NCBI GenBank assembly: GCA_050018355.1
Contig: JBEKAF010000004.1
Span: forward strand, 8,634-72,633
Length of the DNA: 64,000 bases
Reading direction: 5' to 3'
From: Terriglobales bacterium
Lineage (GTDB): Bacteria > Acidobacteriota > Terriglobia > Terriglobales > Acidobacteriaceae
Part shown: piece by piece, positions 4,271 to 54,333 of the stretch
How the letters are laid out: each line of letters begins with the position of its first letter
Position numbering within the stretch: the first letter of the stretch is position 1
Translations under genes and position numbers: made by a program
Notes under the pieces: model-generated
The model's database searches: none
What the model was told of the DNA's origin: nothing
Seen by the model: the letters and a program-made list of their open reading frames with translations, nothing else

Positions 4271-6310
4271 CTCGACCAGGTGAGCCCGTTCCAGGGCGCG
4301 GAGATACTCCGGGCGGGAATGACGGTAATGATCGGCCGGGACTTTGCCGTTGAGCCAAGCGGTATCCATCGGGTAGACCATGGGATCGAAGATCACCATG
4401 TAGAAGTGCCAGATGAGGATGGAGAAGGTGGCCAGGATCGCCTCATACCAATGCACTGCCGTGGCCGCGTCCGTCACCCATTTCGGATAATGGCGCAGCG
4501 CAAAATTGTTGAACCACAGCAGGAAACCGGAGACGCCCATGACGACGGTGCCCCACATAAAGGCCCAGTATTCCATTTTCTCCGCATAGTTGAATTTCGC
4601 AAACTTCGGCTCCTGTTTTGTGAGGCCAAGGTTGTAGCGGAAGACCTCCAGCATGTCCGTGGCGTCCTTGATTGTCGGGATCATGGCCCAAAGGAAAGAG
4701 CGATCGCGCTTCTTCCGCGCCAGATGCACGAAGTGGTAGAAGACGGCCAGGAGCATGACGATGGCCGCGGTGCGGTGCAGCCCGCCGCGCCAACCGGCGG
4801 CGGACTCCCAGAGCTGCAGCGGCTTGGACCACCAAAGCTCCGGATACTTCAACGCAAATCCCGTGAACACCAGCGTCGGGAAACTCACCATGATGCCCCA
4901 GTGCGCGACGCGGAACCACAAGTTCATCCGCAGCACCATCTCGCCGGATTCTCTCCGCGGGCGGCGCCGAATGAGTTTCGACAGAAAGTCCAGCAGGTTG
5001 TGCAGCAGCATGAAGCCCAGTGTCACCGGGATCAGCACCCAGTACGTCCAGCGAATCCACTCCACCACCGGGTTATTCGGGCCCGCGCCGGTCTGCACAT
5101 GTATGGGACCGATGGTGAATTTGGCTTCGACCACACCTTTGTGACATTGCCCGCACGTTTTCCGGAGGTTTGCGGCATTGACGGTCGAGCGCGGGTCGCT
5201 CGAAGGAAGAATGGCATGCACCCCATGGCATGAAGCACAATTCGCCGCAGTCACTTTCCCTTCTTTGAGGGCCAGCCCGTGATAGCTGCCGGCGTAGGAT
5301 GGCAGGCGATCCGCTGGCAAATCATAGCGCAGTGCCAGGCGGGCATCGCCATGGCAACGCCCGCAGGTCTGCGCGGAGATATTCTCGGCATTTAAGGGCG
5401 AGGCCGGGCTGCCCGGGTCCACGATCAGGTGCTCGCCGTGGCAGTCGATGCAAATGGGAGCATCCCGCACGCCGTTCTTGACCGCTTCCCCGTGGACACT
5501 CTCGTTGAACTCCCGGGCGATTTCCTTGTGGCATTGCGCGCAGGTCTCCACCACTTTCCAGTGATTGACCTTGGATCGCTCATCGGTGGCGGGATAGATG
5601 TCATGAGTGCCATGGCAACTGGAACACGTTGCCGCATCCTTGCCGAGCGCGACCGCGCGCCCGTGAACGCTCAGCTTATAGGAAGCCACCGGATGCGCCA
5701 CCGGAATTTGGTGCCGCGACAAGAACCCGGCATCGCTGTGGCATTTTGCGCAAGTATCCGCCATGTTCTTACGGGCAATGGTCGAGTCCGCCTCACTGGA
5801 GGCTTTCACAGCGTGGATGGAGCCGTGGCAGGACTCGCATTTGGGCGCGTCGGGATCGCCGTTTTTCGCGGCCTGCCCGTGAATGCTGGACGCGAGGTCC
5901 TTCGCTTCCTCGGCATGACACTCCGTGCACTTTCCGGGAATCAGCCTTTCCGCCAAGGTGAGTTCGTGCACGCTGCCGTGACACGAAGCGCACGCAGATT
6001 CGCCGAGGATGGAGTGGGCGCTGGCGGGGAAGGACTTGGCCTCGTCCGCATGGCAGGTGACGCAGTGCACTTTGGCGATTTTGGCGGGATGCGGGAACTC
6101 TTTGATCGCGGTGTGGCAGTCCTTGCAGCTGAGAACCCCGTGTGCGCTGGCGGCATGCTTGTCCGGGTCGATTGAAATGCTCTTCCCGGCGTCGGACTTC
6201 ATCCCCGCCTGGCCATGGCATGCCAGACATTCCTGGTCTCCAGCGGGCAAAGCCGAAGCCGAAGCCAGAGTCAAAGCCAGGTAAACCAAAGCAACTCGAG
6301 TCGCAAGCAT
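4220..6310 (-). CDS. multiheme c-type cytochrome (13 CXXCH) fused to a FdnI/HydC-type cytochrome b membrane domain (CbcL-like architecture)
   Basis: 696 aa. Signal peptide, 13 CXXCH motifs counted in the translation, then about 5 TM helices with conserved His (VAHWGIM, LHRTAAIV, YHFVHL, AVHWYEAIL, IWHFYM). Confidence 0.9.
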   Translation of the reverse strand: MLATRVALVYLALTLASASALPAGDQECLACHGQAGMKSDAGKSISIDPDKHAASAHGVLSCKDCHTAIKEFPHPAKIAKVHCVTCHADEAKSFPASAHSILGESACASCHGSVHELTLAERLIPGKCTECHAEEAKDLASSIHGQAAKNGDPDAPKCESCHGSIHAVKASSEADSTIARKNMADTCAKCHSDAGFLSRHQIPVAHPVASYKLSVHGRAVALGKDAATCSSCHGTHDIYPATDERSKVNHWKVVETCAQCHKEIAREFNESVHGEAVKNGVRDAPICIDCHGEHLIVDPGSPASPLNAENISAQTCGRCHGDARLALRYDLPADRLPSYAGSYHGLALKEGKVTAANCASCHGVHAILPSSDPRSTVNAANLRKTCGQCHKGVVEAKFTIGPIHVQTGAGPNNPVVEWIRWTYWVLIPVTLGFMLLHNLLDFLSKLIRRRPRRESGEMVLRMNLWFRVAHWGIMVSFPTLVFTGFALKYPELWWSKPLQLWESAAGWRGGLHRTAAIVMLLAVFYHFVHLARKKRDRSFLWAMIPTIKDATDMLEVFRYNLGLTKQEPKFAKFNYAEKMEYWAFMWGTVVMGVSGFLLWFNNFALRHYPKWVTDAATAVHWYEAILATFSILIWHFYMVIFDPMVYPMDTAWLNGKVPADHYRHSRPEYLRALERAHLVELPTEPADYEDEQGTAH

Positions 6311-50737: not shown

Positions 50738-50965
50738 AACGGGTTTCATCCAGCTTCAGGTGTTCGCCTATTCCTCCGTGTTCCTGCCTGTTTACTATTA
50801 AGGTAATAGTATAGTTAGAACAGAAAAAACTCTTCCCCCCGGTCTTTTGGAATCATAGGGTTACGCAAAAAATTCCGCAAAATCTTTGAGTTTAAAGGAG
50901 TTATACGTAAAATATTCCGGAATGGTAAGTATCCCCCCAGACCAAGTATAGTAAAATGGATGGGT

Positions 50966-51078
50966 CGGGATATGGCGAAATTGGCAGACGCGGCAGTTTG
51001 TTAGCTGTCCTCGAAAGTGGGCCGCTAGCCAAACTGCTGGGGCAACCCGTCCGGGTTCAATTCCCGGTATCCCGACCA
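50966..51078 (+). tRNA. tRNA-Leu-like (class II) gene with an abnormal 45-nt anticodon arm; functional status unknown
   Basis: The 7-bp acceptor is CGGGATA/TATCCCG, followed by discriminator A and an encoded CCA. The D-arm is TGGCGAAATTGGCAGACGC (Leu-type). The variable hairpin is GGGGCAACCC and the T-arm is CCGGG-TTCAATT-CCCGG. Between the D-arm and the variable arm lies GCAGTTTG...CAAACTGC, which forms a ~17-bp hairpin with an 8-nt loop instead of a 5-bp stem with a 7-nt loop. Confidence 0.6.
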
Positions 51079-51088
51079 CTTCCCCAAA

Positions 51089-51700
51089 TTATCCAGACTC
51101 ACCCAACGGTTTAATAAATTCCTTGAAGGCATGTTGTGGTGAAATTCTGGTTGGAAATTCCACCGGAATCAAATCCTTAAGTTTGTCGTAGTCCTTATCC
51201 CAATGCTGAAGCACCTCAACTTTCTTACGCTTGTGTAGGTCTATGGCTGAGGCCGCATGAATCGCATCGGCAGGTTTGAGTCCATAATTGCGAGAAATCT
51301 CAACTGCCGATGCAGCGATCCGATCATCAAGTTTAATCGTGTGTATTCGGTCAGGATGTAGAAGTTGGCTTATCCCATCCATCTCTTTTTTCGTGAGCAG
51401 ACGTGTCGGTCGCGTCCTTTGGATGTGGAAGTCCCATAAATTCCGAAGAGGGATTTCCACTTGTGGGAATTTCTCCAATACCGCATCGGTCCAGCTTGGA
51501 AGTGGCTTCGCGATGAACTTGTCTCGTGGGCGTATCACTTCTGCGATGGTGAAGGATGAGGTCCAAATTTCAGCAGTACCATTTGCGGAGTGCTGGAGTA
51601 TATCTTCACAGATATAGTGCCGCTCCCTCTCATGGTCACTATCATTGAGAAAACAAATAAAACATGTCGTATCCCAATATAGTTTGCGGAAATCACTCAT
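51089..51700 (-). CDS. PIN-domain nuclease-like protein (enlarged, 203 aa)
   Basis: Acidic residues lie in PIN-like positions (YWDTTCFICFL, TSSFTIAEV, PADAIHAASAI, HWDKDY). The start ATG overlaps the upstream stop (ATGAGTGA). Confidence 0.7.
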   Translation of the reverse strand: MSDFRKLYWDTTCFICFLNDSDHERERHYICEDILQHSANGTAEIWTSSFTIAEVIRPRDKFIAKPLPSWTDAVLEKFPQVEIPLRNLWDFHIQRTRPTRLLTKKEMDGISQLLHPDRIHTIKLDDRIAASAVEISRNYGLKPADAIHAASAIDLHKRKKVEVLQHWDKDYDKLKDLIPVEFPTRISPQHAFKEFIKPLGESG

Positions 51701-52496
51701 CGTCAGATTCCTCTAGGTATTTCTTCAAGGACACCCCGCCAGTGAAATCCTTGATAATTCCTGACAGACTCTGTATTGGTACCAGGTCGGCTCTTGGCGG
51801 AGCCTCTTCTAAATCGTCCACCTTTATTGAAAGTGGGTTGCCTGCACTGTTCATCAGCATTTCCCCAGTTACAACCACGACCTTGCGAAGAGAGTCCTTC
51901 ACCTTCCCCTCGAAATCAGGCTTAAAGACGCATCGAACTGGCTTTCCACTTTCCTTGTCCCAAATGCGAAATTCAGCTCCTCGGTGAACAGAGATCGCAT
52001 CCAAACTTCCAGTAACAGAGCCAAAGCCAGAATACTTGGGGCCAGTCAATTCCTCGACATTTCGGAGCGTGGCTTGAGAAATTTCACTCTCCTGTTTTGG
52101 CCGTCCGTTTTGCGGCGTCCAAATCGCCATCGGACCAATTTTCGGCGTTCGGTTCGCCAGCTTACCTACATGCGAAAGTGCACCATCAGAAAAGAATTTG
52201 TTTCTTTCACCTTTTGTAGACAATAGGCTGGTGTTCTCAATCACCTGCGATTTCACCGCAGAACTTCGATCAAATAATGGTTTACGAGGGATGGGTAAAA
52301 CGCCAACTACTGGGGCAGCAGGCTTCTCTAGCACTTCGACCATCCATTTCACGCTTCCATGGGATTTTTCAGAGAGGGTGGCGTCCACATCTTTGAGGAT
52401 GTATAGAAAATCTCGGACAGAATCCACGAACGTGGAGAGGTCGATTTGGCGCTCAGTTCCTACGCGGAAAAAAATTGGCTGCGGCATTTTGGCCAC
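51693..52496 (-). CDS. hypothetical protein (267 aa), translationally coupled upstream partner of the PIN protein
   Basis: Protein-like composition, no motif recognised, acidic C-terminus (LEESDDE). Start is GTG 52496 or ATG 52487. Confidence 0.65.
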   Translation of the reverse strand: MAKMPQPIFFRVGTERQIDLSTFVDSVRDFLYILKDVDATLSEKSHGSVKWMVEVLEKPAAPVVGVLPIPRKPLFDRSSAVKSQVIENTSLLSTKGERNKFFSDGALSHVGKLANRTPKIGPMAIWTPQNGRPKQESEISQATLRNVEELTGPKYSGFGSVTGSLDAISVHRGAEFRIWDKESGKPVRCVFKPDFEGKVKDSLRKVVVVTGEMLMNSAGNPLSIKVDDLEEAPPRADLVPIQSLSGIIKDFTGGVSLKKYLEESDDE

Positions 52497-52569
52497 CCGT
52501 GTTACCCTAGGATTAGCCTATGGTCATATGTATCCCGAGGTCGTGACAAATGGAGAATCACTCAAGACC

Positions 52570-53660
52570 TTCCGCCAAGAATGCTCAGAGTGAAACCCAT
52601 CAACAACCGTTAGTTCCATTGCCTGAAACGGCGGCTAAAATGGAACCGATTCGTCGCTCATCATTCGAGACATTACTGGATCGGGCCGCGAAACCAAGGG
52701 CTGTGCAGCCTTCGCCAAAACGTCATGGAAAATCAGGTTCCCGCAATCGCGGCGATTGTACCTGAAACTGTACTCATCAAGATAGGTCTGCAAATACTTC
52801 TGCGAAACCGAATGGTAAACTCCACCGATCCCACGCTTTACCAGACTCCAAAATCCTTCAATCGTGTTTGTGTGAATGTCGCCCATCACATAGACCTTCG
52901 CGCTGTGATTGATGCGCTTGTGCTCGTTCACACGTGCGCCAAGGCGATCATAGATCGGGTATTCATCGGTGAACACGGTGCTCTTGGGAAGCACGTACTC
53001 ACGCACCAAGCCTAATACCTGATTCGTCGTTACGTCCGGCGTTGCGAGAGCTTTTATCCGTCCGGCCTTGCTCTCGGTGCTGCGTTCTACCATCCCAATC
53101 ACTGGCGATTTCTTCTTGTCGCCACGCATCGGACGGCCAGACTGACCCTTGCGCTTTCCTCCGTAATACATCTCGTCCATCTCGATTGATGAACCCTCCA
53201 GTTTCACATCCTCCGAAAGGAGAATGCGAATCTGCTTGAACATCCGCCACGCGGTTTTGTAGGTGACACCAGTCTCGCGCTGAATCTGCTTTGCGCTGAT
53301 TCCGCAACGTGTCGAGGACATGAGGTACATCGCGTAAAACCACAGTCTCAGCTTGGTTGTGGTTTTCTCGAAGATCGTCCCTGCCAAAGGGAAGATGTGA
53401 TTCCCGCAACGATCACAGGCATAGGCGGTGCGTCCGCTCACACGATGGTGCTTGCGCTCTACGCCGCACTTCTCGCAATGCGTGACGCCACCGGGAAAGC
53501 GCCGTTCTTTGATCGTTTCTAGGCAAGCGTCCTCTGTGGGATACTGCTCATTGAACTGCTGGATTGTGTAGCGCAACTCTGGTGGGATTGTTTGTCTGCG
53601 GTTCATGGTAAGAAAACTGTACCATATCGTTAACTTGTTGTCAAGGGATAATTACCTCCG
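52570..53660 (-). mobile_element. IS1595-family insertion sequence (ends not defined)
   Basis: Single transposase ORF. No convincing terminal inverted repeats could be aligned by eye, so the boundaries are approximate. Confidence 0.4.
52635..53606 (-). CDS. IS1595-family transposase
   Basis: N-terminal zinc ribbon (CEKCGV...CDRCGNH), then LRLWFYAMYLMSSTRCGISAKQIQRETGVTYKTAWRMFKQIR (HTH), then an ISXO2-like DDE region (IEMDEMYYGG...VFTDEY...NTIEGFWSLVKRG). Confidence 0.9.
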   Translation of the reverse strand: MNRRQTIPPELRYTIQQFNEQYPTEDACLETIKERRFPGGVTHCEKCGVERKHHRVSGRTAYACDRCGNHIFPLAGTIFEKTTTKLRLWFYAMYLMSSTRCGISAKQIQRETGVTYKTAWRMFKQIRILLSEDVKLEGSSIEMDEMYYGGKRKGQSGRPMRGDKKKSPVIGMVERSTESKAGRIKALATPDVTTNQVLGLVREYVLPKSTVFTDEYPIYDRLGARVNEHKRINHSAKVYVMGDIHTNTIEGFWSLVKRGIGGVYHSVSQKYLQTYLDEYSFRYNRRDCGNLIFHDVLAKAAQPLVSRPDPVMSRMMSDESVPF

Positions 53661-54333
53661 GAATAAAGACTTACGTTGTCAAAGAGCGCTGAAAATGGCT
53701 TTGGGGCAGCTTCGAGGTCCGTCTTGGGAGACGGACACACTCATGCTGCCCCGATCAGATGGCTATTGTCGCACCGGACCGGTGGGCGTGTCTGTGACGG
53801 GGCTCACAGAAGGGATGTGATGAAAAATCAGGAGTCGGAAGTGAAACCCCGCCAAGCGGGGCTTGTACGGGTAAAGGAGCACAAAATGGGTCGGCGGGCC
53901 AAAGCCCCAACCGGCGCAATGACAGTCGCTGCCAGCGGTGGTCCATGTGATACAAGTGGCATATGAAACGCTCGAATTCACCCGGGCCCTTCAGAAAATA
54001 GTGAGAGAGCTCAGGATCAGGGACCTAACCGCGCTCCTACAGGGATGGCTGAAAGACCCCGGCAACCCCAACATCTCCCGATAAACTCGTAAGACTCGGC
54101 GTGACACTTCCACTAAGGGACGCTGCTGCGGTTGACCAGAGGCAACTACTCATTGAGAAGCGTGACGTGAGGCTTCTGGGGACTGGGTTGCAGAGCGAGA
54201 ACGAAGATGATGACGAGAACGCAGAAGTCCCATTTTTGAAGGCCTTTCAGGGTGTTCGTCGGTCAACGACTCGACTACAAGACTTCAGAATTTTCGATCG
54301 CCCGATGACCCGATCACCAGATCGCCCGATGCG

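Follow-up and report, generated by a model that had tools for sequence, protein, structure and literature searches.

A conserved tRNA-shaped RNA, predicted to be non-decoding, beside a VapC-like PIN nuclease gene on an IS1595-family element of Acidobacteria

The window, as we call the whole stretch of 64,000 nt analysed here, contains a 2,733-bp insertion sequence of the IS1595 family (50924-53656). It carries genes for a transposase (Tnp), an OB-fold protein and a PIN-domain nuclease and, convergent with the last of these, a small RNA gene with the frame of a Leu-type class II tRNA (henceforth the RNA; Table 1). An earlier sequence-only reading had described the RNA as a tRNA-Leu-like gene whose anticodon arm is replaced by a 45-nt hairpin, and every part that it listed (acceptor, A73, CCA, D-arm, variable hairpin, T-arm and the hairpin itself) is present as described. 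Between the PIN stop codon and the CCA of the RNA lie 10 nt, exactly the distance that had been reported. That reading had also placed the gene in an AT-richer islet; what it missed is the nature of the islet, an IS1595 element with target-site duplications (TSDs) and the RNA as its cargo.

Table 1. Features of the RNA gene and of the element that carries it, in window coordinates
Feature	Position	Strand	Remarks
Left TSD, 8 bp, TCCGGAAT	50916..50923	.	identical 8-mer abuts both inverted repeats
Terminal inverted repeat (IR), RNA-proximal end, GGTAAGTATCCCCCCAGACCAAGTATAGTA	50924..50953	+	20/30 match to the reverse complement of 53627-53656
-10-like boxes TATAGT / TAAAAT	50947..50957	+	9-19 nt 5' of the RNA start; putative own promoter, almost leaderless
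tRNA-like small RNA gene, 113 nt	50966..51078	+	Leu-type class II frame, A73, encoded CCA
Acceptor CGGGATA / TATCCCG, 7 bp	50966-50972 / 51068-51074	+	
D-arm, Leu-type	50975-50991	+	
Extended "anticodon" arm, 45-nt closed hairpin	50993..51037	+	replaces the 17-nt anticodon stem-loop
Variable hairpin GGGGCAACCC, short	51039-51048	+	
T-arm CCGGG-TTCAATT-CCCGG, 5-bp stem	51051-51067	+	
A73; CCA	51075; 51076-51078	+	
VapC-like PIN-domain nuclease, 203 aa	51089..51700	-	Pfam PIN E = 1.9e-10; convergent with the RNA
Partner protein, 264 aa from ATG (ORF from GTG to 52496)	51693..52487	-	overlaps the PIN start by 8 nt
IS1595-family DDE transposase, 323 aa	52635..53606	-	Pfam DDE_Tnp_IS1595 E = 1e-40
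Terminal IR, transposase end, inward GGTAATTATCCCTTGACAACAAGT...	53627..53656	-	holds a TTGACA -35-like hexamer
Right TSD, 8 bp, TCCGGAAT	53657..53664	.	

Standard annotation overlooks the RNA gene. ARAGORN at default settings called no tRNA and no tmRNA in the window and Rfam at gathering filters gave zero matches there, whereas the Rfam tRNA model (RF00005) run with permissive filters scored 43.5 bits over 50966-51075 (gathering score 29), in an alignment that places a 29-nt insert within the anticodon loop. The RNA has the 7-bp acceptor, the 5-bp T-stem, the GTTCRANNC T-loop and the GG of the D-loop by which a cloverleaf is recognised, and it folds more stably than its shuffled versions (z = -3.3; 0/200 shuffles equally stable). 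A covariance model built on the RNA family (R1) gives the window RNA 127.4 bits; outside the family, its top scores fall on ARAGORN-called tRNA-Leu genes (50-68 bits), with tRNA-Ser at 26-36 bits. We rejected tmRNA as an identity: ARAGORN reports none, Rfam has no tmRNA match at the locus, and the RNA is only 113 nt long. For annotation, the lesson is that a conserved tRNA-derived RNA family escapes standard tRNA finders and default-filter Rfam; the intron mode of ARAGORN would mislabel the RNA as an intron-bearing tRNA-Gly or tRNA-Asn.

Upstream of the RNA, a TAnnnT box stands 8-17 nt before position 1 in 10/10 versions of the family, whose flanks are otherwise unrelated, a similarity that is one of resemblance to the consensus only. 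A generic promoter scan of the RNA 5' region gave only a weaker site, farther upstream. At locus L006, the GGGATTATAATTTACC upstream of the RNA is the -10 box, and the true IR lies another 880 nt out.

The structure of the RNA was examined by covariation, run on seven and then on ten distinct versions from differing genomic contexts; a pattern scan of metagenomes supplied two further versions. The carriers are metagenome-assembled genomes of Acidobacteriaceae/Terriglobia and relatives. The search for relatives with the extended arm and compensatory changes that had been proposed earlier was thereby rewarded. Across the ten versions, 96.3% of pair cells are standard, compared with 35-45% in slid controls, and double-sided changes occur at 19/35 pairs, spread over all five helices, a pattern that 0/500 shuffles match. 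The extended arm alone has double-sided changes at 10/17 pairs (92.9% of its cells pair), and covariation is seen in the other four helices too (acceptor, D, variable and T). G·U pairs are frequent on the tRNA-sense strand and would be A·C mismatches on the opposite one, which fixes the RNA strand as +. A73 is invariant, the D-arm is nearly so (the copy in the representative genome, L132, has A13G in the D-loop), and the acceptor/T branch is 7/5 in 10/10 versions; the encoded CCA is missing in L142 and L145. From these comparisons we conclude that the small RNA is real and conserved, has the shape of a tRNA, and is under selection for its predicted structure.

The most unusual part of the RNA is the arm that stands in place of the anticodon stem-loop. 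Across the family it measures 44-50 nt, 27-33 nt more than a normal anticodon arm, and forms an irregular helix that is closed and varies at its tip. From the base, an 8-bp helix leads through a 1x2 internal loop (Y / RY) into a distal helix of about 9 bp, which is capped by a variable apical loop; the motif U33-G34-Y-U-A-R ... Y-U-A-RY-C-A is kept across versions. The sole indel between the window RNA and the 98% identical cargo of L132 sits in the apical loop. Inspected by eye for a K-turn or loop E, the conserved internal loop shows no tandem G·A pairs. The YU-GYU-A motif of the 5' strand resembles a true anticodon loop; an RNA acting purely as a decoy would need none.

The arm has no 5-bp stem with a 7-nt loop bearing a Leu anticodon (NAG / YAA). 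Since there is no anticodon loop as transcribed, the RNA cannot decode, and we conclude from its predicted fold that it is non-decoding in this form. Excision of the extra nucleotides would not make it a Leu decoder: a Leu anticodon is not obtained by any excision from any of the ten versions (0/10), and the outcome is not conserved either, since excision at 37/38 gives GUU six times, GCU three times and, in L145, a non-canonical loop with U37. The excision products listed for the window sequence in the earlier reading (GCC, GUC or GUU, never Leu, Ser or Tyr) are correct; in three relatives, unlike the window, canonical 37/38 excision would yield GCU (Ser). A bulge-helix-bulge motif (BHB; two 3-nt bulges and a 4-bp helix) is absent from the covariation-supported structure, where the sole interruption near the putative splice sites is the 1x2 internal loop and both sites lie inside helices. 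A group I intron does not fit, as its core of >200 nt would find far too little room in an insert of 27-33 nt, and Rfam has no intron match. The suggestion of an unreported small tRNA intron thus found no support in BHB, in a Leu anticodon or in an anticodon conserved across the family.

The neighbouring nuclease is VapC-like. VapC toxins are the best matches of its fold in Foldseek, and its sequence profile matches "Ribonuclease VapC" (7by2) in the PDB with E = 2.4e-5; a PDB phmmer search with the 203-aa protein returned nothing. Its catalytic residues D10, E54, D145 and D168 are invariant among 32 homologs, and it carries a helical insert of ~55 aa (AF2 model pLDDT 89). We also considered HARP, the PIN-type protein-only RNase P, as its identity and rejected it (8kda at Foldseek rank 46, probability 0.13, TM 0.26). 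The partner protein, encoded upstream of the PIN gene in 27/31 genome loci, combines an alpha/beta domain at its N terminus with a C-terminal OB fold and ends in an acidic tail (AF2 pLDDT 82). In Foldseek, the OB fold resembles those of SSB, of Stn1 and of the anticodon-binding domain of LysRS (E = 1e-3 to 1e-2). Searches of Pfam (including permissive searches with all 18 homologs), NCBIfam, PADLOC and PDB profiles gave no match for the partner, and PADLOC assigns neither protein to a defence or toxin-antitoxin (TA) family. The PIN neighbour noted from the sequence is thus real and VapC-like; its conserved OB-fold partner had been overlooked.

Both genes and the RNA belong to the mobile element. 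The transposase has, besides its DDE domain, an N-terminal zinc ribbon (Pfam Zn_ribbon_IS1595, E = 5e-10) and scores 197 bits against NCBIfam transpos_IS1595. The ends of the element were missed by a generic inverted-repeat finder; they were found by comparison of loci and verified by script. Independent 8-bp duplications surround the element at L006 (ATAGTATT) and L012 (ATATCTTT), and the gene order Tnp-OB-PIN-RNA recurs within unrelated flanks. The transposase-end IR is conserved in L005, L125, L006, L127 and L012. The RNA-proximal IR motif is found upstream of the RNA in L132, L145 and L124 as well, and adjoins the PIN stop directly in L012, which has no RNA. Promoter-like elements facing inward adjoin both IRs. 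Taken together, the sequence comparisons identify the RNA as optional cargo at the IR end of an IS1595-family element, and the locus documents an insertion sequence with a structured RNA gene in this position.

The association of the RNA with the nuclease, which the earlier reading had pointed out, is real and stronger than it supposed. A tRNA or tRNA-like gene lies <=500 nt downstream of the PIN gene, a position that we call the slot, in 13/34 independent loci, and 12/13 of these genes are convergent (binomial P = 7e-21, or 4e-8 when counted as six acquisitions). All 13 are irregular, with an abnormal anticodon region or an unnatural combination of anticodon and identity. The RNA accompanies PIN homologs of 100% down to 37% identity (47% in L142, 37% in L145), and over this whole range its 3' end lies 1-16 nt from the PIN stop; class I tRNAs in the slot stand 159-451 nt off. 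Nucleases that are 67-74% identical carry differing slot tRNAs, Arg-like with ACU in L126 and Ser-like with AUC in L131. No terminator lies between the RNA and the PIN gene in the window; a hairpin follows the PIN gene in L126, and terminator-like hairpins immediately follow the RNA in L123 and L124. On these last two, both short contigs, the RNA has no PIN gene within 1.5-1.8 kb, and that of L124 adjoins an IR-like motif with other cargo (HTH/M78). Conversely, the OB-PIN operon occurs with no tRNA-like gene at L012, L009 and 19 other loci. The linkage between the RNA and PIN/OB is non-obligate. An allo-tRNA(UAU)-like gene lies close to the same insertion sequence in L138; the 93-nt "tRNA-Cys (gca)" that ARAGORN calls in L138 and L139 was discarded as a false positive because it overlaps the 3' end of the transposase gene and is unsupported by Rfam or R1.

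How might a tRNA that cannot decode serve a nuclease gene at its side? PIN toxins of the VapC type recognise the body of a tRNA and cleave its anticodon loop. We tentatively propose that the RNA is a tRNA mimic, non-decoding but probably chargeable by LeuRS, and that the PIN/OB module has it as its RNA ligand, be it a decoy, a regulator or a substrate. The RNA would be transcribed from its putative own promoter and then matured as a tRNA. Charging by LeuRS is probable because the bacterial enzyme reads A73 and the D-arm/tertiary core and ignores the anticodon; the invariant A73 and nearly invariant D-arm of the family are in keeping with this. The charged RNA would then be a tRNA-mimicking ligand for PIN/OB: with an intact tRNA body and a sealed anticodon region, it could be bound by the nuclease and escape the usual inactivation, and such binding would buffer or regulate the nuclease in a decoy or antitoxin-like role. 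Alternatively, it may be a dedicated substrate whose cleavage site is the conserved internal loop. With transcription converging and no terminator in between, the RNA and the PIN operon could, in addition, interfere with each other by antisense. The intact PIN tetrad and a partner with a nucleic-acid-binding OB fold and an acidic tail speak for a ligand of this kind. Among the three explanations offered by the sequence-only reading, its chargeable, non-decoding RNA acting as decoy or regulator appears to fit best. Several observations lean the other way: the linkage is non-obligate, the 5'-strand motif looks like an anticodon loop, L142 and L145 encode no CCA, and PADLOC places neither protein in a defence or TA family. 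Closely related PINs also carry different irregular tRNAs (Arg-like ACU, Ser-like AUC), a diversity that is better explained by a slot for cargo in general than by a specific decoy co-evolved with the nuclease.

That diversity bears on the reading that the RNA is an independent hitch-hiker with a function unrelated to PIN/OB, the gap between gene and IR being a permissive cargo site and irregular tRNA-like genes a common accessory of acidobacterial mobile elements; it might serve as a charged, non-translating aminoacyl carrier or as a regulator of tRNA-sensing pathways. The different irregular tRNA types beside closely related PINs are in line with this, as are the occurrence of RNA and PIN/OB without each other, the L124 RNA beside its IR-like motif and HTH/M78 cargo, and the allo-tRNA(UAU)-like gene near the same insertion sequence in L138. 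Irregular tRNAs that are charged, unused in translation and located near varied TA systems and transposons have been described (Mukai et al., 2017; PMC5389517). We nevertheless regard this reading as rather unlikely, given the extreme enrichment, the uniform orientation (12/13 convergent) and a spacing of 1-16 nt that persists at 37% PIN identity; nor does the neighbourhood hold an aminoacyl-transferase or other obvious client gene. Very unlikely, in our view, is that the RNA acts as an antisense or transcriptional regulator, with read-through from the IR-proximal promoter into the PIN-OB-transposase operon and the tRNA-like fold as a stable, processable 5' module, in a control resembling type I TA systems or RNA-OUT. 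The convergent, terminator-free arrangement with a gap of 1-16 nt and the inward promoter-like elements at both IRs would allow it, but any stable hairpin would do for this role, which leaves unexplained why each of the tRNA helices is under selection, together with A73 and the T- and D-loops. Moreover, terminator-like hairpins follow the RNA in L124 and L123, which have no PIN gene, the class I tRNAs of the slot stand 159-451 nt off, and a hairpin follows the PIN gene in L126. That the RNA is a tRNA-Leu pseudogene broken by a palindromic insertion, the first option of the earlier reading, is hardly conceivable, even though tRNA finders miss it and it sits inside a mobile element. All its helices, including the "insert" arm, are kept by compensatory changes in ten versions, ten of them double-sided within the "insert", which refutes this option; the promoter-like boxes are conserved, and the hairpin is single-copy in the window with 3 mismatches allowed, so that it is no dispersed palindromic repeat or MITE there.

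The extended arm itself raises the question of whether the RNA is a caged, intron-containing pro-tRNA from which 27-33 nt are removed at 37/38, perhaps by the PIN nuclease and a host ligase. The product would be a tRNA of Leu identity with a 7-nt loop and the anticodon GUU or GCU, reading Asn or Ser codons as Leu by missense. We consider this quite unlikely: the BHB motif is absent and both putative splice sites lie within helices, the anticodon is not conserved and the loop of L145, with U37, is non-canonical, the variable position 35 is merely the bulged pyrimidine of the internal loop, and the helix distal to the splice sites covaries, which is needless in an intron bound for removal. Protein-dependent tRNA splicing is not known from Bacteria, and we count this against the pro-tRNA as well. 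In its favour, 9/10 versions have a 5-bp stem and then Y32-U33-G-Y-U-A37, and 37/38 excision in these gives a loop that is canonical, with U33 in place and position 37 a purine, and in which 32·38 may mismatch (C·C, U·U) as in genuine tRNAs. As read from the sequence, the putative cuts flank a 4-bp segment, which is the spacing that splicing endonucleases use. Other genes found in the slot form cloverleaves that are competent to decode and have anticodons of the missense type (ACU, UCC and AUC), and allo-tRNAs of this type have been documented in Acidobacteria (Mukai et al., 2017; PMC5389517). The more specific scheme in which the PIN nuclease, guided by its OB partner, would cut both arm strands beside the conserved 4-bp U33-G34/U36-A37 and a host ligase would join the ends into a Leu-charged GUU/GCU tRNA strikes us as highly improbable; if true, it would mean protein-dependent tRNA splicing in a bacterium and a missense tRNA controlled by a mobile element.

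In type III TA systems the antitoxin is a series of tandem RNA repeats that precede the toxin gene, are co-transcribed with it and are processed by the toxin. The proposed ligand of PIN/OB is alike in concept to these systems (ToxIN-type), where a structured RNA neutralises an endoribonuclease encoded alongside; by contrast, the RNA is single-copy, tRNA-shaped, downstream and convergent. With VapBC the locus shares an acidic-tetrad PIN, a partner gene that overlaps it from upstream and encodes an acidic C-terminal tail, and a place on a mobile element. It differs in that the partner is a 264-aa OB-fold protein without a recognisable DNA-binding antitoxin domain and that the PIN bears a ~55-aa helical insert. 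We know of no VapBC system described with a tRNA-like gene as a recurrent third component. IS1595-family elements with passenger genes are known (ISNwi1-like, ISfinder), and the element resembles them in its DDE_Tnp_IS1595 transposase, short imperfect IRs, 8-bp TSD and genes between the transposase and the far IR; to our knowledge, a tRNA-like RNA gene and an OB-PIN operon have not been described before as passengers of this family.

Ordinary bacterial tRNA-Leu, the nearest R1 relative outside the family, has the same acceptor, D-arm, variable hairpin, T-arm, A73 and CCA, and differs in having an anticodon stem-loop where the RNA has a closed helix of 44-50 nt. Another mimic of class II-like tRNA with a long helix in place of the anticodon stem, protein-binding in that case, is Y RNA/YrlA, and the Deinococcus Y RNA model (RF01053) scores 20.5 bits over the variable hairpin and T-arm only (gathering score 80). 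Y RNAs are circularly permuted, with their ends in a long stem and a loop-closed acceptor, and are linked to rsr/rtcB; the RNA is unpermuted, has open acceptor ends with CCA, and has no Ro-like gene among its neighbours. The nearest precedent appears to be the acidobacterial allo-tRNAs found near TA systems. These, too, are non-canonical tRNA genes of soil and peat Acidobacteria close to TA systems and transposable elements. Unlike the RNA, with its 7/5 branch, Leu-type D-arm, A73 and missing anticodon loop, they have an 8/4 or 9/3 acceptor/T branch (12 bp), Ser-type identity and a normal anticodon loop. A further difference is that the partner module of the RNA is defined and statistically linked (OB-fold and VapC-like PIN, on IS1595). 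For allo-tRNAs and other irregular tRNAs, a role as suppressors, as regulatory ncRNAs or as both has been suggested (Mukai et al., 2017, NAR 45:2776; PMC5389517).

In the searchable literature on tRNA-like RNAs with IS1595, on VapC decoys or antitoxins and on mobile mistranslating tRNAs, we found no description of the RNA. It suggests a previously undescribed RNA partner for nucleases of the tRNA-cutting type. Should the RNA indeed be a ligand of PIN/OB, VapC-like systems would have their first tRNA-shaped RNA component, and with it a natural means of studying how the recognition of tRNA bodies by PIN toxins differs from that of anticodon loops. For the soil Acidobacteria, the "irregular tRNAs near TA systems" would gain a concrete, recurring and clonable genetic partner, an OB-fold protein and a PIN nuclease carried on an IS1595 element.

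Re-reading the sequence at 50966-51078 on the + strand of the window showed all of the tRNA parts to be present exactly as the sequence-only reading had given them, and the convergent gene that it placed 10 nt away is indeed an ORF for a PIN-domain protein whose stop codon lies 10 nt from the encoded CCA. ARAGORN called no tRNA gene anywhere in the window, and Rfam at its gathering filters had no match for the locus; in a search restricted to the local region, the Rfam tRNA model scored 43.5 bits at 50966-51075 (gathering score 29), in an alignment that places a 29-nt insertion in the anticodon loop. The predicted fold is more stable than that of shuffled sequences (z = -3.3). The locus is a structurally constrained tRNA-Leu-like RNA gene (henceforth the long-armed RNA) that lacks an anticodon loop. 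An IS1595-family element carries it at its inverted-repeat end, and its association with a VapC-like PIN/OB-fold operon is statistically supported; in this structural and genomic description we have high confidence.

Coordinates of the long-armed RNA, of its insertion sequence and of the tRNA-like genes beside PIN homologs at comparison loci (L-numbers)
Feature	Locus	Position	Strand	Description	Basis
Acceptor	window	within 50966-51078	+	CGGGATA/TATCCCG, A73, encoded CCA	sequence inspection
D-arm	window	within 50966-51078	+	Leu-type, GCG-AAATTGGCAGAC-GC	sequence inspection
Long hairpin	window	50993-51037	+	45 nt	sequence inspection
Variable hairpin	window	within 50966-51078	+	short, GGGGCAACCC	sequence inspection
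T-arm	window	within 50966-51078	+	canonical, CCGGG-TTCAATT-CCCGG	sequence inspection
PIN protein	window	51089-51700	-		PIN-domain match
Partner	window	51693-52487	-	264 aa, family without a name	ORF in low-GC block
IS1595-family transposase	window	52635-53606	-		family searches
Terminal inverted repeats	window	50924-50953 and 53627-53656		imperfect, 20/30 positions matching	script check
Direct repeat	window	directly outside both inverted repeats		8 bp, perfect, TCCGGAAT	script check
tRNA	L126	4766-4839	-	class I, well formed, Arg(ACG)-like body, anticodon ACU	
tRNA	L137	4501-4573	-	class I, well formed, Arg(ACG)-like body, anticodon ACU	
tRNA	L147	4231-4305	-	body similar to Arg(ACG)-like, anticodon UCC, A73	
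tRNA-like	L141	4299-4394	-	class I acceptor/D/T arms and CCA; 4-5-bp stem with ~28-nt loop replacing anticodon loop	
tRNA	L131	1858-1973	+	Ser-like, G73, CCA, normal anticodon stem, loop CUAUCAC (anticodon AUC), 42-nt variable arm	

G+C falls from ~0.6 to ~0.48 in the interval bounded by ileS and lspA at one end and by an SLT/TPR gene at the other. The AT-richer islet noted from the sequence is therefore a real low-G+C block, the nature of which had escaped that reading: it is an insertion sequence with inverted repeats and an 8-bp duplication. Its ends, located by mapping the limits of similarity to loci with PIN homologs and then verified by script, delimit 2,733 bp, and relatives carry 8-bp duplications of their own (ATAGTATT in L006, ATATCTTT in L012). 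The tRNA-like gene sits inside the element, in a slot that has the PIN gene to one side and the inverted repeat to the other. The L012 copy has transposase, partner and PIN genes and no RNA, its inverted repeat abutting the PIN stop codon, and the long-armed RNA is thus optional cargo. In L132 (1445-4239, compared with window 50966-53606), from a close relative with a different sequence (Acidobacteriaceae MAG palsa_296, PKUV01000030.1), the OB/PIN/RNA cargo is 98-99% identical to that of the window, whereas the IS1595-type transposase upstream of it shares only 34% identity; on these identities, the cargo module has evidently been swapped among different IS backbones.

The target of the element in the window is an imperfect palindrome, ACGTAAAATATTCCGGAATAAAGACTTACGT (empty site rebuilt from 50884-50923 and 53665-53700). 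The sequence AAGTCYTTATTCCGGA is common to the window flank and to the flank of L005 (~1915-1937) and L125 outside the transposase-side inverted repeat, in otherwise unrelated context, a hint that the element favours a certain target sequence or that a small repeat recurs. The RNA-less L012 element lies between two ORFs (1638-2225 and 4767-5159) that each match REase-ARP (PF22558), suggesting that it interrupted a restriction-endonuclease-like gene.

The same extended arm recurs with compensatory changes. By combining loci with PIN homologs, one metagenome pattern scan and one scan of a viral collection, we found ten distinct versions of the RNA (window, L132 (= L163), L142, L127, L005, L125, L124, L006, L123 and L145); as an exact-pattern census this means at least ten, a single D-loop substitution having once sufficed for zero matches. 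The loci are mostly metagenomic contigs or MAGs, several of them short, and the evidence is computational throughout. Flanks of the ten are unrelated, and the accompanying PIN proteins range from 100% down to 37% identity. In a sequence-only MAFFT alignment, the acceptor, D, long-arm, variable-hairpin and T helices have standard pairs in 96.3% of cells, versus 35-45% with the 3' partner slid by 1-3 columns, and double-sided changes affect 19 of 35 pairs, of which 10 lie in the long arm, 4 in the acceptor, 3 in T and one each in D and the variable hairpin. None of 500 column shuffles reached these values, a control that overstates significance because the versions are kin by descent, so that the slid-partner control and the double-sided-change count are more robust; a seven-version test gave the same picture. 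G·U pairs are frequent on the tRNA-sense strand and would be A·C mismatches on the opposite one, which identifies the tRNA-like strand, rather than a 3' UTR of the PIN mRNA, as functional. Over 1.5 kb of ~98% identical cargo, the sole indel between the window and L132 is confined to the long arm's apical loop, the pattern of a tip that is free to vary on a helix that is kept. A covariance model built from seven versions gives the family 110-130 bits and L145 61 bits, against 50-68 bits for ordinary phage genes labelled tRNA-Leu by ARAGORN and 26-36 bits for tRNA-Ser, in support of a body of Leu type. Upstream of position 1, at a distance of 8-17 nt, each version has a -10-like box (TATAAT, TAAAAT, TAAAGT, TACACT or TAGAAT), suggesting a promoter of its own with next to no leader.

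Covariation is free in the proximal 5 bp of the long arm. Position 32·38 is U-A in most versions; two have C·C or U·U there, as real anticodon loops do. The conserved elements beyond it are, in order, U33-G34 paired with C-A, an internal 1x2 loop with Y facing RY, U-A-R paired with Y-U-A, a distal helix that covaries and whose 3' strand is rich in purines, and the variable loop at the tip. The 5' strand thereby keeps an anticodon-loop-like heptamer, YU-GYU-AR. A canonical-looking tRNA-Ser(GCU) lies directly outside the transposase-side inverted repeat in L006 (1787-1880, - strand), and its loop UUGCUAA is almost identical to the 5'-strand motif UUGCUAG of L005, L125 and L124. In its transcribed form the long-armed RNA lacks an anticodon loop, and its arm is ~14 bp longer than standard; judged by how tRNA is known to fit the ribosome, such a transcript should be unable to decode.

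The PIN protein keeps its catalytic acidic residues (D10, E54, D145 and D168) in 32 homologs. Its sequence profile matches a solved 'Ribonuclease VapC' (E = 2.4e-5), and VapC toxins are the best, albeit weak, fold matches of its AlphaFold model (pLDDT 89; E about 2e-3, target TM 0.6-0.73), with a helical insert of ~55 residues left unaccounted for. PIN-type RNase P (HARP), also considered, came only 46th in the fold ranking. The partner gene overlaps the PIN start codon by 8 nt, and its product, with no match in Pfam, NCBIfam, PADLOC or PDB sequences, has a conserved acidic tail at its C-terminus and a modelled C-terminal OB fold (pLDDT 82) whose best matches are the class IIb LysRS anticodon-binding domain, SSB and Stn1 (E = 1e-3 to 1e-2); we treat this predicted fold as a generic nucleic-acid-binding type. 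The pair occurs in 27 of 31 loci from named genomes, mostly Acidobacteriota with a few other phyla, about half of them with an IS1595-type transposase upstream.

The long-armed RNA is present at eight PIN loci, and five further loci have other tRNA-like genes within 500 nt downstream of PIN. Those of L126, L137 and L147, all three well-formed class I tRNAs (Rfam 64-68 bits; 159-451 nt downstream, convergent), bear anticodons unexpected on their Arg(ACG)-like bodies and are possible missense tRNAs. The L141 gene lies 198 nt after the PIN homolog and weakly matches the tmRNA model (37.4 bits, gathering score 47), and that of L131, 214 nt after, was overlooked by ARAGORN at default (Rfam tRNA 54 bits). 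A tRNA or tRNA-like gene thus occupies the slot at 13 of 34 independent PIN loci, convergent with PIN in 12 of the 13, against a background expectation of ~0.6% per locus (binomial P = 7e-21, or 4e-8 if the 13 represent six acquisitions). Even L145, the most distant, has the same order as the window: inverted repeat, TATAAT box, RNA, 16 nt, PIN stop codon. The linkage is not obligate; many PIN loci are without any tRNA-like gene, and L123 and L124 carry the RNA with no PIN gene within 1.5-1.8 kb, L124 retaining an IR-like motif upstream. Neighbours of the L124 copy, which also lacks PIN/OB, are PD-(D/E)XK endonuclease and HTH_3/Peptidase_M78 (ImmA/IrrE-like) genes (91-549, - strand; 1223-1972, + strand), and this may be the same RNA with a different cargo set.

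What might such an RNA do? Bacterial LeuRS reads A73 and the D-arm/tertiary core and ignores the anticodon, so the RNA would probably be charged with leucine yet kept out of decoding. VapC-type PIN nucleases, as in enteric bacteria and mycobacteria, bind tRNAs and cut anticodon loops, and an RNA whose tRNA body is intact while its anticodon region is sealed or altered has the looks expected of a decoy or buffer for a PIN nuclease, or of its dedicated substrate. We tentatively favour, at somewhat below even chances, a tRNA-mimic ligand of the PIN/OB module, because all five slot architectures have an abnormal anticodon region or an anticodon unnatural for the body. Against it stand the different tRNA types beside closely related PINs, which fit a permissive cargo slot and speak for irregular tRNAs hitch-hiking independently, a reading to which we give perhaps one chance in a few, and the likeness of the conserved heptamer to a usable anticodon loop.

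A caged or intron-bearing missense pro-tRNA is unlikely. Enumerating every removal that leaves a 7-nt loop confirmed that no Leu anticodon can be obtained from any of the ten versions; removal at the canonical 37/38 site yields GUU in six, GCU in three and a non-canonical loop in L145. With this varying outcome, no bulge-helix-bulge motif in the long arm and an insert an order of magnitude shorter than a group I intron, the small tRNA intron once proposed finds no support. An antisense regulator seems more doubtful still, and a pseudogene made by palindromic insertion is refuted by ten versions that keep the structure, with ten double-sided changes inside the long arm.

A Leu-type D-arm and T-loop set 48-78 nt apart, versus the normal 34-42 nt, also occur in 110 IMG/VR viral contigs (L013-L122), a heterogeneous set, many within phage tRNA arrays and uncalled by ARAGORN (for example L021 946-1073(-), L034 2151-2252(+) and L115 523-624(+)). 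L021 has a single long closed arm and a short variable hairpin, resembling the window RNA; in L115, L120, L093 and L057 the anticodon stem is normal and the variable arm measures ~30 nt, and several of these combine a Leu-type body with the anticodon UGG; and a large group has a common acceptor AGTCAGG/CCTGACT around a hypervariable centre of 50-80 nt.

Among known RNAs, Y RNAs (YrlA) similarly have a long helix where the anticodon stem would be; these are, however, permuted and linked to Ro, and the long-armed RNA scores far below the Rfam threshold. The closest precedent is the allo-tRNAs (PMC5389517), which combine an acceptor branch of 8/4 or 9/3 with Ser-type identity and an ordinary anticodon loop, whereas the long-armed RNA has a 7/5 branch, is Leu-type and lacks the loop. 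L138 has a 93-nt gene (335-427, + strand; ARAGORN tRNA-Ile(tat)) that resembles the allo-tRNA(UAU) described by Mukai et al., with a short T-stem and an acceptor of 9 bp (GGAGTGGCA/TGCCACTCC); it precedes an IS1595 transposase-OB-PIN unit by ~1.2 kb. In Acidobacteria, irregular tRNAs, the allo-tRNAs among them, lie in the vicinity of TA systems and transposons, some of them being charged yet unused in translation (Mukai et al., PMC5389517; review PMC7609411). In the searchable papers, no tRNA-like RNA was tied to IS1595, and none was described as a decoy or antitoxin of a VapC-like module. As an irregular tRNA-derived RNA on an acidobacterial mobile element, the long-armed RNA belongs to a known kind; its partner module is newly defined.
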